Positions 9,862-15,113 of a stretch of 15,221 nt of DNA are shown in pieces. The notes beneath the pieces were generated by a model. That model searched no databases. It was given only the letters and a program-made list of their open reading frames with translations, and had not been told where the DNA came from. The stretch covers positions 1-15,221 of the forward strand of contig JBBTED010000149.1 in assembly GCA_038042445.1 (NCBI GenBank), written 5' to 3'. The first letter of the stretch is position 1. Each line of letters starts with the position of its first letter. A program made the position numbers and the translations under genes. The stretch is from Candidatus Firestoneibacteriota bacterium (GTDB lineage: Bacteria; Oederibacteriota; D2-FULL-39-29; JBBTED01).

Positions 9862-10950
9862 ATGGATAAATTATTAACACATAAGAGATGTAGGCATATT
9901 GGATGTTATTCTATAATAATATTATTGTCTTATGTTTTGCTTTCAGGCTGTGCATCACGATTTGGAAATTTTAGAGGAGATAAAAAATTTGTACAAAATA
10001 AATATCAACTTGCTATAGCAGAATATAAAAGTGTGCTTAAAAAAGACCCGGACAATAAACAAGCACTTTCAATGCTTGCATGGAGTTATTTTAAAATGGG
10101 CGAGTATGAAGATGCTTTAGATGCTTTTGTAATATATCAGCAGTTATATCCAAAAGAAACAGAAGCATTAAATGGGTTAGGATGGAGTTATTTTAAAACA
10201 GGCAAATATGAGAAAGCAAAGCAGGATTTTAATAAGTCAATTAAAATAAATAAAAAGCAATCAGATCCGTATAATGGTCTTGGCTGGGTTTATCTTTCAG
10301 ATAAAGAAGAAATAGCCGCATTTAATAAATTTCAGGAAGCTTTAAAATATGATATAGAGAGCCCTGAAGCACACAGAGGTCTGGGCTACTATTATTTTTT
10401 CAAAGAGAATTATGATAATTCAATTATTGAGATGCGAAGGGTATTAAGAATTCAACCTGATTGGTTGGACTGTTTGGTTTTGATAGGGAAAAATTATCTT
10501 GCAAAAAAAGAATATGATGAAGCTGCAAAATGGTTTGAATGTTATTTAAAAGAAAAACCTGATGATTTAGATATAGTACTTCAGTTTTCTCAAATGGAAT
10601 TCTACAAGAAAGATTATGCAAGTGTTGTAAAATATTTATCATACCTGAAAATTAAAAAAATAGATAACCAAAAGGAATGGAGTTCTTATAGTTCTGCTTT
10701 ATCAATGCTTGGTTGGAGTTATTTCTACCAAGAGAATTATAAGGAATCTTTAAATGTATTTGGTTTATTAAAAAATTTACATAGTGAAAGTGATTATTAT
10801 GCTGATGTCCATGATGCTTTAGGATGGAATTACTTAAAACTGAAAAATTTAGATGAAGCATTTGCAGAATTTCAGATTGCATTGAAATTAGCACCAGAGT
10901 ATGCAAGTTCATTAGTGGGACTGGATGAACTCAAAAAGCTCAAAGAATAA
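9862..10950 (+). CDS. TPR-repeat lipoprotein
   Basis: 362 aa. Lipobox LLSGC and repeated ~34-aa TPR units (ALSMLAWSYF, ALNGLGWSYF, PYNGLGWVY, AHRGLGYYY, VHDALGWNY). Confidence 0.85.
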   Translation: MDKLLTHKRCRHIGCYSIIILLSYVLLSGCASRFGNFRGDKKFVQNKYQLAIAEYKSVLKKDPDNKQALSMLAWSYFKMGEYEDALDAFVIYQQLYPKETEALNGLGWSYFKTGKYEKAKQDFNKSIKINKKQSDPYNGLGWVYLSDKEEIAAFNKFQEALKYDIESPEAHRGLGYYYFFKENYDNSIIEMRRVLRIQPDWLDCLVLIGKNYLAKKEYDEAAKWFECYLKEKPDDLDIVLQFSQMEFYKKDYASVVKYLSYLKIKKIDNQKEWSSYSSALSMLGWSYFYQENYKESLNVFGLLKNLHSESDYYADVHDALGWNYLKLKNLDEAFAEFQIALKLAPEYASSLVGLDELKKLKE

Positions 10951-11065: not shown

Positions 11066-12112
11066 ATGGTAAAGCAGTTGTTGGGTTGTGTGTTAGTATT
11101 ATTGTTGTTTGTTGCAGTTTGTCCATCTTTTGCAGGTGTGCCTCAGGTGGATCAGGCATGGGGTTACTACTATGCTGCAGATTATGCCAATGCAATAGTA
11201 AAGTTTAAAGAGGCATTAGACAGCAAAAAAGTTTCAAGCAAGGAAGTTTGGGCTGTTCATTCAGGTCTTGCATGGTCATACTACTGGAAAGGAGAAACAG
11301 ATAAAGCAAAAGAAGAATTTAATTTTGTTTTAAAAGATGCTTCTGATAATGCAGATGCGTTAAAAGGTATGGGTTTTTGTAATTTTGCTAAAAAGGATTA
11401 TGATAATGCAATAAAATCTCTTAAAAAATCTCTTGAGAAAGCTCCCGGTGATTATTATGCACAGGCAAATTTAGCATGGAGTTTTTGCTATAAAAAGGAT
11501 TATGATAATGCAAAAAAAGAATTTGGAAAAACAATTGATATATCAGCTTATTATGCTGAGAGTGCAGAATTTTTAAAAATATTAGATGAAAGAAAAGATT
11601 TCAATAGTTTGTATCTACAAGCAGGATGGATTTACTATGTATGGAAAGATTATGATGGTGCATTTAGAATATTCAATACCGCTATCACAAAAAATAAAGA
11701 TGACTGGGAAGCTTTGATGGGTATTGGATACACATATTATCAATACAAATTATATGATAAATCCATAAGCAATTTAGAAGCATCTTTAAAACTTAATAAA
11801 GAGTCTAAAAAAATCAAAGAAACTATTTTTGTTCCTGGAATATATGGAGAATTTTTAATTGAAAGTGATGCGACATCAACACTTGCATGGTGTTATTATA
11901 ACAAAGGAAATTATGATGTAGCAATTGAACTTTTCAAAAAGACGATTGCAAAGCATTCAGATTGGGTTGATGCGCATGATGGTTTGGCATGGTGTTACTA
12001 TGTGAAAAAAGATTTAAAATCTGCAGAAGGAGAATTTAACAAAGCGCTTAAACTTAATAAAAACTATGGAAGTTCTTTGCAAGGTTTAGCTGCAGTGAAG
12101 TCAGGAAAATAA
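11066..12112 (+). CDS. Exported TPR-repeat protein
   Basis: 348 aa. GGAGGT RBS at 11054-11059, signal peptide ending SFA-G, TPR units (VHSGLAWSYY, AQANLAWSF, ALMGIGYTYY, AHDGLAWCYY). Confidence 0.87.
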   Translation: MVKQLLGCVLVLLLFVAVCPSFAGVPQVDQAWGYYYAADYANAIVKFKEALDSKKVSSKEVWAVHSGLAWSYYWKGETDKAKEEFNFVLKDASDNADALKGMGFCNFAKKDYDNAIKSLKKSLEKAPGDYYAQANLAWSFCYKKDYDNAKKEFGKTIDISAYYAESAEFLKILDERKDFNSLYLQAGWIYYVWKDYDGAFRIFNTAITKNKDDWEALMGIGYTYYQYKLYDKSISNLEASLKLNKESKKIKETIFVPGIYGEFLIESDATSTLAWCYYNKGNYDVAIELFKKTIAKHSDWVDAHDGLAWCYYVKKDLKSAEGEFNKALKLNKNYGSSLQGLAAVKSGK

Positions 12113-12360
12113 TGACTGTAAAAATCCCTGAGGAGTTAAATCCTACAAAAAAGGGGTTTTTATTTGATCCTTATACTGGCCATACTTATACGTTGAATGC
12201 TACTGCTGCTTTTGTATTTAAAAAATTGCAGGAGGGCAAAAATATATCAGATATTACTAAAGTATTGGCTGATGAGTATAAGCTTGACGAGAAAAAAGTC
12301 TTAGAGGATATAAAAGATTTTGTAATGAACATAAAAGATTTTAACCTAACAAAAAAATAA
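12112..12360 (+). CDS. Stand-alone PqqD-family protein / RiPP recognition element (RRE)
   Basis: 82 aa with the PqqD pattern: GFLFDPYTGHTYTLNATAAFVF strands followed by helices I...LADEY.LD...VLEDIKDFV. TAATG overlap with the upstream TPR gene. Confidence 0.85.
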   Translation: MTVKIPEELNPTKKGFLFDPYTGHTYTLNATAAFVFKKLQEGKNISDITKVLADEYKLDEKKVLEDIKDFVMNIKDFNLTKK

Positions 12361-12438: not shown

Positions 12439-13506
12439 ATGATAAAATATACTGTAGGTGTAACCGGGTTAAATGCTACAGACAATCCTGCTCCTGGTGT
12501 TCCTGTTATAAGGAGTATAAAGGATAGCCCTCTTTGGAAAGGTAAAATAGTTGGATTGGCTTATGACGCATTAGATACAGGTATATACAATAATGATTTA
12601 TTAGATGAAGTTTATCTTATTCCTTATCCAAGCGAGGGCGAAGAAAATTTACTTGCAAGATTAAAATATATCAAAGGTAAAACTGGGATTAATGTTATAA
12701 TTCCAACACTTGATTCTGAACTATCCAATTTTGCGCGTCTTGAACCTGAATTAAAAAAAATAAATGTCCACTTGCTTATTCCTTCTGAAAAAAAACTTAA
12801 ACTAAGAGCAAAAACCACTTTATATGAATTTTGCAGGAAAAATGGGTTTGATGTGCCTTATACAACTATTGTGCAGGAACCTGCAGAAATCGCAAAAAAA
12901 ATGTCCGATTTTAAATTTCCTGTTGCAATTAAAGGGGTGTTTTACGAGTCTTATACTGCTTGGACAATTGATGAAGCTATAGTATATTTTTGTAAAATAA
13001 AAGAGCGATGGGGTCTACCAATAATACTTCAGGAATATATAAAGGGTGAAGAATACGATGTTGTTGCACTTTGTGACAAGAAAAGTAAAGTTAAGGGTGC
13101 TGTTGCAATGCGGAAATTAAGAATCACAGATAAAGGTAAAGCATGGGCTGGAATAACAATAATGGATGAAAAGTTGCTTGACTTATCCAAAAATATACTT
13201 GAGAAATTAAAATGGACAGGACCACTTGAAATGGAATTTGTAAAAGATTCTTTGTCAAACAAATATTATCTGTTAGAGATAAATCCAAGATTTCCATCCT
13301 GGGTATATTTGGCTACAAGAGCTGGACAGAATTTACCTTTGGCTACTTTACTTCTTGCTTTAGATAAAGATACACTGCCTTTTGAAAAAGTTAAACCAGG
13401 TCTTACTTTTGTAAGACATGCAATTGATATGGTTTGTCCTATAGAATATTTAGAAGAATTAACTACAAAAGGAGAATTACTCTATAATACAAACCATAAA
13501 AAATAA
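12439..13506 (+). CDS. ATP-grasp carboxylate-amine ligase (CarB/biotin-carboxylase-like fold)
   Basis: ATP-grasp motifs FPVAIKG, ILQEYIKGEEY, LEMEF and YLLEINPRF. ATG 12439 (355 aa) is preferred because the TTG at 12391 lies inside the hairpin. Confidence 0.85.
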   Translation: MIKYTVGVTGLNATDNPAPGVPVIRSIKDSPLWKGKIVGLAYDALDTGIYNNDLLDEVYLIPYPSEGEENLLARLKYIKGKTGINVIIPTLDSELSNFARLEPELKKINVHLLIPSEKKLKLRAKTTLYEFCRKNGFDVPYTTIVQEPAEIAKKMSDFKFPVAIKGVFYESYTAWTIDEAIVYFCKIKERWGLPIILQEYIKGEEYDVVALCDKKSKVKGAVAMRKLRITDKGKAWAGITIMDEKLLDLSKNILEKLKWTGPLEMEFVKDSLSNKYYLLEINPRFPSWVYLATRAGQNLPLATLLLALDKDTLPFEKVKPGLTFVRHAIDMVCPIEYLEELTTKGELLYNTNHKK

Positions 13507-13536
13507 GATGCAGGTTTTATGTAGGGCAAGGCTTTA

Positions 13537-13656
13537 GAGCTTGTGCCAAAACCCTATTTTGTCATCCTGAACGAAGTGAAGGATCTCGTTTTTAAAAGAC
13601 TTTAAAGCGAGATTCTTCGGCTGTTGCCTCAGAATGACACCTTTTGGCACAGGCTC
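13537..13656. mobile_element. 120-bp MITE-like element with 15-bp TIRs and a TTTA target-site duplication
   Basis: Left TIR GAGCTTGTGCCAAAA (13537-13551) and right TIR TTTTGGCACAGGCTC (13642-13656) match at 14/15 positions. TTTA occurs at both 13533-13536 and 13657-13660. Confidence 0.8.
13560..13639. repeat. REP-like palindromic element nested in the MITE
   Basis: Termini TGTCATCCTGA...TCAGAATGACA and an inner stem GAAGGATCTCG/CGAGATTCTTC. The termini are related to the elements at 17-43 and 15164-15221. Confidence 0.75.
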
Positions 13657-13730
13657 TTTAGCCTTGCAATTGCAGTTAGCTTGTAGTAGTTAATCTTGAA
13701 TTGCAAAGTGGAGGTGTAAACAAATTAAAT

Positions 13731-15113
13731 ATGCGTGAAAAAAATAGTGTTAAAAATGTTTTTCCAGCAAAATATGAGAAGCCAACTATTGTTCGACATT
13801 CCGTAGGTCTTATGAATAAATTCGGCAGAATTCCCAATTCTGTTTCTTTTGGAAAAATTGATGGGGTTTCTATTACTGAACTTATGAATAATTTTGGTTC
13901 TCCGCTTTATGTTGTTTCTGAAGGTGCTTTAAGAAGAAAATATAAAGAAATGTATAGAGCATTTAGCTTAAGGTATCCAAAAGTTGTAATATCTTATTCA
14001 TACAAGACAAATTATTTATCAGGTGTATGCGCAATTTTGCATACAGAAGGTGCGTATGCTGAAGTTGTATCAGGTTTTGAATATGATATAGCAATGAGTT
14101 TATCTGTGCCTGGCAATAAAATTATATTTAATGGTCCGTATAAAACAAAAGCAGAACTAAAAAGAGCTATTGAAGGGACAAGCAAAATAAATATAGATTC
14201 TTATGAAGAGATGCAACTTATTGAAGAAATTGCTGAAGAATTGGGTAAAAAAGTAAAAATAGGTGTTAGAATAAATATGGAATTAAATTATCCTCCATGG
14301 GATAGATTTGGGTTCAATTTAGAATCAGGGCAGGCGTTTGAAGCAGTAAAAAGAGTTATGGCATCATCTCATTTGGAAGTATGTGGGCTTCACATACATG
14401 CAGGCACATATATCAGTGATGTAAATACATACTCAAAACTTGCTGAAAAACTTGTTTCATTTTGTGCAAAATTACAGAGTGAGTTAAATGTAAAATTGGA
14501 ATATTTGGATATTGGTGGAGGATATGCGTCAAAAAACACTTTGCATAATCAATGGATGTCTGCAGAATGGACCTGCCCGAGTTTTGACCAGTATGCTGAG
14601 GCAATATGCCCTATAATTTTAAAAGGTCCATTTAAGCCACAAAATATGCCAACACTAATTCTTGAACCAGGACGTTCAATAGTTGATGAAGCAATGTTTC
14701 TGCTTACATCAGTTGTTTCTGTAAAGAGATTGTCTAATGGTAGCAAAGGAGTTGTTATTGATGCAGGAGTAAATTTAATTCCTACGGCATGGTGGTATAG
14801 ACATGATATTCTTCCAATAAAAGAATGGTCCGGGATTACAGAAGATGTTGCAATTTTGGGACCTCTATGTATGCAAATAGATGTAATACGGCAAAATGTA
14901 TCGTTGCCGCCACTTGTTCGAGGCGATATTCTGGTAATAAAAAATGTTGGTGCATACAATTTTTCACAATCAATGCAATTTATTCAGCGAAGACCGCCAG
15001 TTATTTTAATAAATGAAGGAAATGTTGAACAGTTAAAGCAAGCAGAAACAACAGAATATATAAAACAACTTGAAAAAGTTCCAGACAGATTACTAAAATC
15101 TCCATATAAGTAA
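13731..15113 (+). CDS. Group IV (fold III) PLP-dependent decarboxylase, DAP-decarboxylase-like with atypical substrate site and N-terminal extension
   Basis: Motifs GSPLYV, PLP lysine in YSYKTN, FNGPYKT, HIHAGT, LDIGGG, EPGRSIV, GPLC and VGAY. ATG 13731 is preceded by GGAGGTG (13710-13716, long spacing); TTG 13701 is an alternative start. Confidence 0.85.
   Translation: MREKNSVKNVFPAKYEKPTIVRHSVGLMNKFGRIPNSVSFGKIDGVSITELMNNFGSPLYVVSEGALRRKYKEMYRAFSLRYPKVVISYSYKTNYLSGVCAILHTEGAYAEVVSGFEYDIAMSLSVPGNKIIFNGPYKTKAELKRAIEGTSKINIDSYEEMQLIEEIAEELGKKVKIGVRINMELNYPPWDRFGFNLESGQAFEAVKRVMASSHLEVCGLHIHAGTYISDVNTYSKLAEKLVSFCAKLQSELNVKLEYLDIGGGYASKNTLHNQWMSAEWTCPSFDQYAEAICPIILKGPFKPQNMPTLILEPGRSIVDEAMFLLTSVVSVKRLSNGSKGVVIDAGVNLIPTAWWYRHDILPIKEWSGITEDVAILGPLCMQIDVIRQNVSLPPLVRGDILVIKNVGAYNFSQSMQFIQRRPPVILINEGNVEQLKQAETTEYIKQLEKVPDRLLKSPYK

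Follow-up and report, generated by a model that had tools for sequence, protein, structure and literature searches.

The window analysed here, a 15,221-nt stretch of DNA from a Candidatus Firestoneibacteriota bacterium (contig JBBTED010000149.1), carries on its plus strand the genes of a stand-alone PqqD-type recognition element for peptides that are made by the ribosome and modified after translation (RiPP recognition element, RRE; 82 aa, 12112..12360), an ATP-grasp ligase (12439..13506) and a fold-type III decarboxylase dependent on pyridoxal phosphate (PLP; 460 aa, 13731..15113). The decarboxylase begins with a conserved and predicted disordered tail (residues 1-40, 13731..13850), which contains YEKPTI (residues 15-20, 13773..13790), a motif of the type that RREs recognize, with Tyr15, Pro18 and Ile20 at its defining positions. 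We propose that this tail acts as a leader built into the decarboxylase, by which the enzyme is docked to an RRE/ATP-grasp assembly, a reading to which we would give a probability of roughly 0.55. Taken by itself, the idea that the RRE grips the tail in the manner of a leader is quite probable, and docking of the decarboxylase is a more likely purpose of such binding than use of the tail as a fused scaffold.

The frame that starts at ATG 13731 opens with MREKNSVKNVFPAK-YEKPTI-VRHSVGLMNKFGR. The original prediction had pointed to YEKPTI ahead of the catalytic domain, with correct sequence and coordinates, and had warned that a six-residue motif may arise by chance. For a single instance the warning is justified, since 20 of the 2379 non-overlapping open reading frames (ORFs) of at least 100 aa in the assembly to which the window belongs contain YxxPx[IL] within their first 45 residues, so that YEKPTI on its own is weak evidence. 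A scan of a collection holding one genome per species for homologous loci gave at least 584 stretches confirmed by tblastn; 80 loci from many phyla were fetched. All 80 contain [YWF]xxPx[ILVM] in the tail. Pro18 is invariant, Tyr15 is found in 74 loci (Trp in four, Phe in two), and position 20 is Ile in 61, Leu in 12, Val in six and Met in one, while the GSP[LV][YWF] anchor, where found, lies 40-43 residues (mostly 41) downstream of the motif. All four Pro codons are used for Pro18 and synonymous changes also occur at the Tyr, Gly, Asn and Lys positions, which indicates that selection acts on the protein. About 110 of the best 120 database homologues (52-90% identity) share the motif, and most of the others start past it. 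Judged by this conservation at the sequence level, a chance origin of YEKPTI is excluded. The variation observed stays near the pattern [Y/W]xxPx[L/V/I/F/A] that discrete lasso RREs recognize according to excerpts of PMC13381572, only Phe at the first position (2/80) and Met at the last (1/80) falling outside it, and YxxP is called a common RRE-engagement motif in excerpts of PMC12710340 and PMC13622209. Downstream of YEKPTI lies a second conserved segment, G26-L-M-N29-K30-F31-G32-R33 (13806..13829, plus strand, with NKFG at 13815-13826), in which Gly26 is kept in 71 of the 80 loci, Asn29 in 69, Lys30 in 78, Phe or Tyr at position 31 in 75 and Gly32 in 68. This segment, with its nearly invariant Lys30, may provide another point of contact or serve as acceptor site.

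Several observations indicate that the tail is translated and that it is an addition to the enzyme. The only in-frame starts 5′ of the motif are ATG 13731 and TTG 13701, the next one being the Met of MNKFG at 13812, and a start at the latter would remove a segment that is conserved at the protein level. From the sequence comparison, translation of the decarboxylase must therefore start 5′ of YEKPTI, at ATG 13731 or TTG 13701, which settles the start-codon check raised with the original prediction against MNKFG. In all 80 loci the tblastn matches begin at query residues 2-17, and the nearest homologues carry 14-15 residues ahead of the Tyr, like the window protein. The idea that YEKPTI is a chance motif in a mis-called or untranslated N-terminus, the true start being Met 13812, can point to the long spacing (16 nt) between GGAGG at 13710-13714 and ATG 13731; with protein-level conservation reaching Tyr15 in 80/80 loci, synonymous codon variation and the starts of the tblastn matches, it is ruled out for practical purposes. 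Homology begins at residue 39 for the FslC structure 7kh2 and at residue 43 for LysA structures, and the NCBIfam FslC and lysA matches begin at residues 40-42, corresponding to profile positions 10-11. Since these models have only about 10 earlier positions, residues 1-39 are an addition, and nothing in the LysA or FslC models corresponds to the tail. Conservation of the tail equals that of the enzyme core. In the AlphaFold2 (AF2) model its mean predicted local distance difference test (pLDDT) values by block are 46, 51, 41 and 57 over residues 1-40, with segments 1-9 and 17-34 below 50. A segment that is both strongly conserved and predicted to be disordered fits the pattern of a partner-binding motif.

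The candidate partner is encoded two genes upstream. The 82-aa protein matches PF05402 (1.8e-12; 47.8 bits against a cut-off of 23.4), and when the profile of its family was compared with solved structures the best matches were TbiB1 (5v1u/5v1v, 7.5e-13) and TfuB1 (6jx3, 3.2e-9), followed by PbaB1 and LppB. By sequence it is a member of the PqqD/RRE family and resembles lasso B1 proteins. In a HMMER alignment Asn29, Asp66 and Phe70 of the RRE fall on N33, D70 and F74 of LppB, which, in excerpts of PMC13381572, respectively fix the Pro kink, hydrogen-bond the Tyr and divide two hydrophobic pockets. Among the family members Asn29 is kept in 73/73, Asp66 in 67/73 and Phe70 in 71/73. The description of the tail as lasso-leader-like applies to the motif only; it does not extend to a lasso system, since no transglutaminase-like or Asn-synthase-like gene (lasso B2 and C) was found by Pfam among the 14 ORFs of the window that were scanned. 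With the lasso RRE model NF033530 the window protein scored 42.8 bits, below the cut-off of 70.

The tail and the RRE also go together in genomes. Among the 80 loci a PqqD gene is present in 72 and an ATP-grasp gene in 77, on the same strand and directly upstream of the decarboxylase gene. Of the eight other loci, two have C-terminal PqqD fragments at a contig edge and five are too short to tell; the last one, L002, is from a metagenome-assembled genome (MAG) of Planctomycetota in which the operon lacks an adjacent PqqD gene, and a full-scoring member (88.9 bits) is encoded on another contig (G001:C113:4978-5205), between genes for pyruvate kinase and a PHP-domain protein. Loci in the set that carry the names Chitinophaga, Ignavibacterium or Melioribacter come from MAGs. 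The next gene after the decarboxylase encodes a fusion of a urea transporter and an M23 peptidase in 72 loci, and TPR proteins (cluster F4) occur in 54 of the 80. In 99 genomes of the phylum of the window, the tail profile matched three, in each case inside a frame of 457-477 aa, and RRE matches of at least 84 bits were obtained in the same three genomes and on the same contigs. The tail profile gave no match in the 87 other genomes that have a decarboxylase homologue (27-36% identity, LysA-like). The system of PqqD protein, ATP-grasp ligase and decarboxylase is therefore sporadic in the phylum, and the expectation that YxxPx[IL] and NKFG would be conserved alongside an RRE is borne out both by the 80 loci and by the survey.

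A separately encoded ligand for the RRE was sought around the core genes. Among 1985 small ORFs (8-70 aa) in related loci 39 had the motif and none was conserved, and when 753 small ORFs lying no more than 1.5 kb from the core were clustered, nothing recurred in more than three loci except PqqD and the shadow frames of its gene (antisense or alternative-frame). A search of database proteins of 23-74 aa with the tail profile gave 33 hits, every one of which continues into the beginning of the decarboxylase domain, in most cases through ..HIDG.. and in many to GSPL..; they look like N-terminal gene fragments, and we rejected them as free-standing tail peptides. The PqqA model (PF08042), searched with three tails, gave no hit at E-values up to 10; a whole-genome PqqA scan was likewise without hit and is uninformative, as the control genomes had none either. 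Thus the conserved separate precursor gene that the original prediction had supposed to be missing was not found in either set of small ORFs. The tail itself does not fit the definition of a RiPP precursor, which is short and separately encoded, the motif being at the N-terminus of a 460-aa enzyme.

The tail-bearing enzyme is a fold-type III PLP decarboxylase (Orn/DAP/Arg), with matches to PF02784 (Orn_Arg_deC_N, the N-terminal barrel; 2.9e-38, 132.1 bits against a cut-off of 23.4, beginning at residue 72) and PF00278 (the C-terminal sheet domain; 1.7e-13, 51.1 bits against 23). Its nearest families are FslC and LysA, and it falls short of both curated cut-offs: NCBIfam FslC (NF041039) gave 261.2 bits, below the curated cut-off of 500, and lysA (TIGR01048) 257.3 bits, below 297.9. 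The FslC structure 7kh2 was the top match in the PDB (3e-64). Lys92 of YSYKTNY, which we take to be the lysine that forms the Schiff base with PLP, is identical in all 43 rows of the alignment from which the AF2 model was made, and the overall pLDDT of the model is 87.9. A query with the decarboxylase core found a single match in the assembly of the window, the window gene; in this 90%-complete assembly the query thus revealed no separate lysA. Two other genomes (G017 and G029) hold the decarboxylase gene plus a LysA-like paralogue. The ATP-grasp protein matches PF15632 and PF02655; its ORF opens at TTG 12391, and ATG 12439 is the likely start. Its AF2 model has a pLDDT of 92, and a Foldseek search returned 2pn1 as the best match, followed by biotin carboxylase, carbamoyl phosphate synthetase, PurK and L-amino-acid ligases.

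On the reading that we prefer, the first approximately 33 residues of the decarboxylase would serve as a leader bound by the RRE in the fashion of lasso B1 proteins. The tail would add a β-strand to the RRE sheet, with Tyr15 and Ile20 occupying two hydrophobic pockets split by Phe70 of the RRE, the hydroxyl of Tyr15 bonded to Asp66 and the kink at Pro18 fixed by Asn29. The decarboxylase would in this way be tethered to the RRE and, via the other face of the RRE, probably to the ATP-grasp ligase, so that an amide product of the ligase could pass directly to the decarboxylase, while the second motif (G26 and N29-K30-F31-G32) would be presented to a partner. The suggestion that the enzyme tail is the RRE ligand thus agrees with conservation, linkage and the residues retained by the RRE, and the binding itself is a prediction: the modelled complex of the RRE with tail residues 1-45 scored 0.49, the best of three controls reaching 0.11. 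Contacts agreed to at least 95% between runs and the pLDDT of the partner was at least 54. Of 157 solved complexes 116 attained the complex-score mark, as did two of 215 mismatched pairs; at scores of 0.60 or less it was attained only by 18 of the 157 and by both passing mismatches. These counts are only roughly valid because our own alignments were used.

A number of points weigh against this docking model. The complex score of 0.49 is weak and, as solved B1-leader complexes exist, it may reflect likeness to them and not binding. Inspection of 72 RRE-tail pairs revealed no clean residue covariation beyond clade effects; there is a clade-level trend, with exceptions, for tails with Lys17 to go with RREs having G-x-T-Y/F. 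Co-occurrence is likewise at the level of clades, tail, RRE and ATP-grasp being inherited together, and the three genomes of the phylum survey represent three lineages and provide few independent tests. From the fold search one cannot tell whether the ATP-grasp enzyme ligates proteins or small molecules, and no RRE fusion that would tie the RRE to one partner was found, the four hits being uninformative: we discarded one as a deletion-type ATP-grasp chimera, two as over-extended ORFs and one because of an adapter-like peptide. The ligand could conceivably also be a short peptide encoded elsewhere or having another motif, given that the 22-residue precursor of the fosfazinomycin cluster escaped ORF finders (PMC13622209, in excerpts). 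Finally, docking leaves the strong conservation of the second motif unexplained.

This last point speaks for the alternative of a fused precursor, or self-carried scaffold. Here the RRE would bind YxxPxI and present N29-K30-F31-G32 as a core to the ATP-grasp enzyme, which would join a carboxylate-bearing amino acid to the side chain of Lys30; decarboxylation would follow in cis or across the dimer, and the M23 peptidase on the urea-transporter-like channel would free the product. Such a pathway would resemble BtrI/BtrJ/BtrK or LysW/LysX in its logic, except that carrier and enzyme would be fused. The second motif lies 9-12 residues past the RRE motif, is equally conserved and would be superfluous for pure docking. 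Relatives of the decarboxylase use conjugated amino acids (N-citrylornithine in FslC, glutamyl-[BtrI carrier protein] in BtrK), the peptidase-channel fusion is the conserved next gene, and LPP precursors of up to 200 aa bear an N-terminal YxxP leader (excerpts of PMC13381572). The second motif is moreover altered in 5/5 loci with two ATP-grasp hits, against 15 of the 71 with a single one, where mostly one residue differs; the five loci amount to about three lineages and so are not five independent events. In four of them (L009, L010, L012 and L014, from Omnitrophota, Scalindua and other MAGs) two ATP-grasp genes stand in tandem, PqqD is longer (119-127 aa) and the second motif reads NKYxGR with a one-residue insertion, or GKHAG; in the fifth, L060, the two hits are not in tandem, a 576-aa protein carries the PqqD domain at its C-terminus and beyond YQAPAL the tail is degenerate. 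On the other hand, each tail of a fused carrier would yield a single product if Lys30 were not regenerated by the peptidase, RiPP cores are normally C-terminal and cleaved whereas a 420-aa enzyme comes after the core here, and the nearest ATP-grasp folds are those of small-molecule enzymes and not of protein ligases of the RimK/LysX type. We consider the scaffold unlikely. Its fullest version, in which the decarboxylase is enzyme and scaffold at once, the ATP-grasp ligase loading Lys30, the PLP site of the same protein decarboxylating, M23 clipping off the amine for export and the tail being regenerated, is less likely still. From its strong conservation and its alteration in the loci with two ATP-grasp hits we lean towards the second motif being a second contact. 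Nothing in the present evidence separates the two options that the original prediction had put forward, an RRE acting as docking adaptor and a fused precursor that is modified.

It may also be that the tail serves the decarboxylase itself, as a lid, a dimer-swapped arm or an autoinhibitory pseudo-substrate, that its likeness to an RRE ligand is accidental and that the RRE binds another peptide or has another role. A monomer model cannot display contacts across the obligate dimer, and the weakness of the predicted complex, the background of chance motifs in the genome and the precedent of an overlooked fosfazinomycin precursor would all be in keeping with this view. It sits badly with a pattern of variation near the published RRE motif, with the retention of three motif-reading residues by the RRE, with the joint presence of tail and RRE in 3/3 genomes and the failure of the tail profile in the 87 with other homologues, and with the lack of any other conserved peptide gene in the 80 loci. 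The AF2 model furthermore gave no confident intrachain packing of residues 17-34. We regard a role confined to the enzyme as rather improbable, and retain the docking of the decarboxylase to the RRE and its ATP-grasp partner as the preferred explanation.

As regards the surroundings of the three genes, two TPR lipoprotein-like genes with matches to TPR families (9862-10950 and 11066-12112, plus strand) lie directly 5′ of the PqqD gene, the second overlapping its start at 12112. Further upstream on the plus strand, from 6878 onward, are envelope-type genes for a lipoprotein with CarboxypepD_reg/fn3, an outer-membrane barrel and a 516-aa protein without family. The minus strand between 59 and 6746 encodes a CO-dehydrogenase/prismane protein, ferredoxins, a NuoF-like subunit, a flavoprotein and a class-V aminotransferase, a cluster that indicates an anaerobe and is unrelated to the decarboxylase finding. 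Between the ATP-grasp and decarboxylase genes, which abut or overlap in the relatives and do not in the window, is a palindromic element of about 140 nt (13526..13667, inverted repeat I1) with 26-nt arms that are 88% complementary. It has 52 matches in its own genome, looks like a repeat of the miniature inverted-repeat transposable element (MITE) or repetitive extragenic palindrome (REP) type, and is no part of the system. Another palindromic repeat stands at the contig end (15164..15221), and the 55 nt that close the window are found unchanged at the start of contig C8 (positions 1-55) in this assembly, which places the gene at C8:74-1681, a urea-transporter domain fused to an M23 peptidase (PF03253, 3.1e-54; PF01551, 6.5e-15), directly after the decarboxylase gene. 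Elsewhere in the assembly, at C36:22028-22189, there is a second, different PqqD-like ORF that matches the RRE-family profile partially (34.8 bits), and a 709-aa ORF beginning MKVLLVQLP ends about 500 nt upstream of it; the two may form a separate RiPP-type cluster, and weak PqqD matches of this kind were seen in five related genomes. A MAG of Desulfobulbaceae encodes a 268-aa protein (L040:5987-6793) in which a TetR_N DNA-binding domain precedes the PqqD domain, and the tail in this locus starts WIAPTI. In the database protein P0124 a PqqD-like N-terminus is joined to unrelated sequence via VSYTHLDVYKRQ, a peptide that occurs twice; the peptide is presumably an artefact derived from a sequencing adapter, which would make the record a chimera.

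RREs serve as class-independent markers for RiPP mining, in which they are assumed to bind a small precursor, while the likely ligand here is the N-terminus of a full-size enzyme. The operon of PqqD, ATP-grasp, decarboxylase and urea-transporter/M23 genes was found in at least 584 stretches with one genome per species. If the proposal is right, the binding of leaders by RREs has found a second use, in holding an enzyme complex together or in turning an enzyme into its own scaffold, which would explain some orphan RREs without precursor, and a 25-residue peptide and an 82-residue protein would provide a handle on an uncharacterised and very widespread pathway. Should the enzyme double as scaffold, this would be a small-molecule pathway on a ribosomal scaffold fused to an enzyme, in hundreds of species of many phyla. 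In the full-text literature that was searched, which leaves subscription journals largely outside, there was no publication on this operon or on a leader-like enzyme tail.

Among known systems the discrete lasso RREs (TbiB1-TbiA, 5v1v/5v1u; TfuB1/FusB1-FusA, 6jx3; PbaB1-PbaA, 9x90) are the nearest solved relatives of the window RRE. The window family shares with them a ligand motif almost wholly within [Y/W]xxPx[L/V/I/F/A], the Phe that divides the pockets and the Asp that binds the Tyr, and differs in that the motif is borne by a 460-aa enzyme and not by a short precursor. In the PqqD-PqqA system a protein of the PqqD fold also binds a short N-terminal segment with aromatic-x-x-Pro, and PqqA presumably resembles the decarboxylase tail; the PqqD chains in the PDB nevertheless gave values of only 0.013-0.11 with the window RRE profile, and the operon has no radical-SAM PqqE. 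FslC/FigC (7kh2) and BtrK (2j66, 7ru7) have the same fold-type III PLP fold and take as substrate an amino acid that a ligase has first conjugated, while the FslC family model, with only 10 positions before the first one matched, has no counterpart of the tail. The ligase that partners FslC and BtrK is an NRPS-independent siderophore synthetase or BtrJ, and an RRE is not known from either system. Small molecules are made on scaffold peptides in the pearlin pathway as well as in that of fosfazinomycin. For the latter (FzmZ), excerpts of PMC13622209 describe how an RRE and a YxxP peptide build a small molecule with the involvement of an ATP-grasp enzyme, on a free scaffold of 21-22 residues with the chemistry at its C-terminus, whereas the candidate scaffold here is the N-terminus of an enzyme. 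LppB-LppA (9x8z; excerpts of PMC13381572) shares an N-terminal YxxPxV leader on precursors of up to 200 aa and the residues N33, D70 and F74 that align with those of the window RRE, but LppA is a phosphorylated and cleaved substrate with a variable C-terminus where the window protein has a conserved enzyme, and the window locus contains no kinase or signal-peptidase-like gene. Recognition of a leader by an RRE is known, and what would be new here is a leader borne by an enzyme of the pathway.

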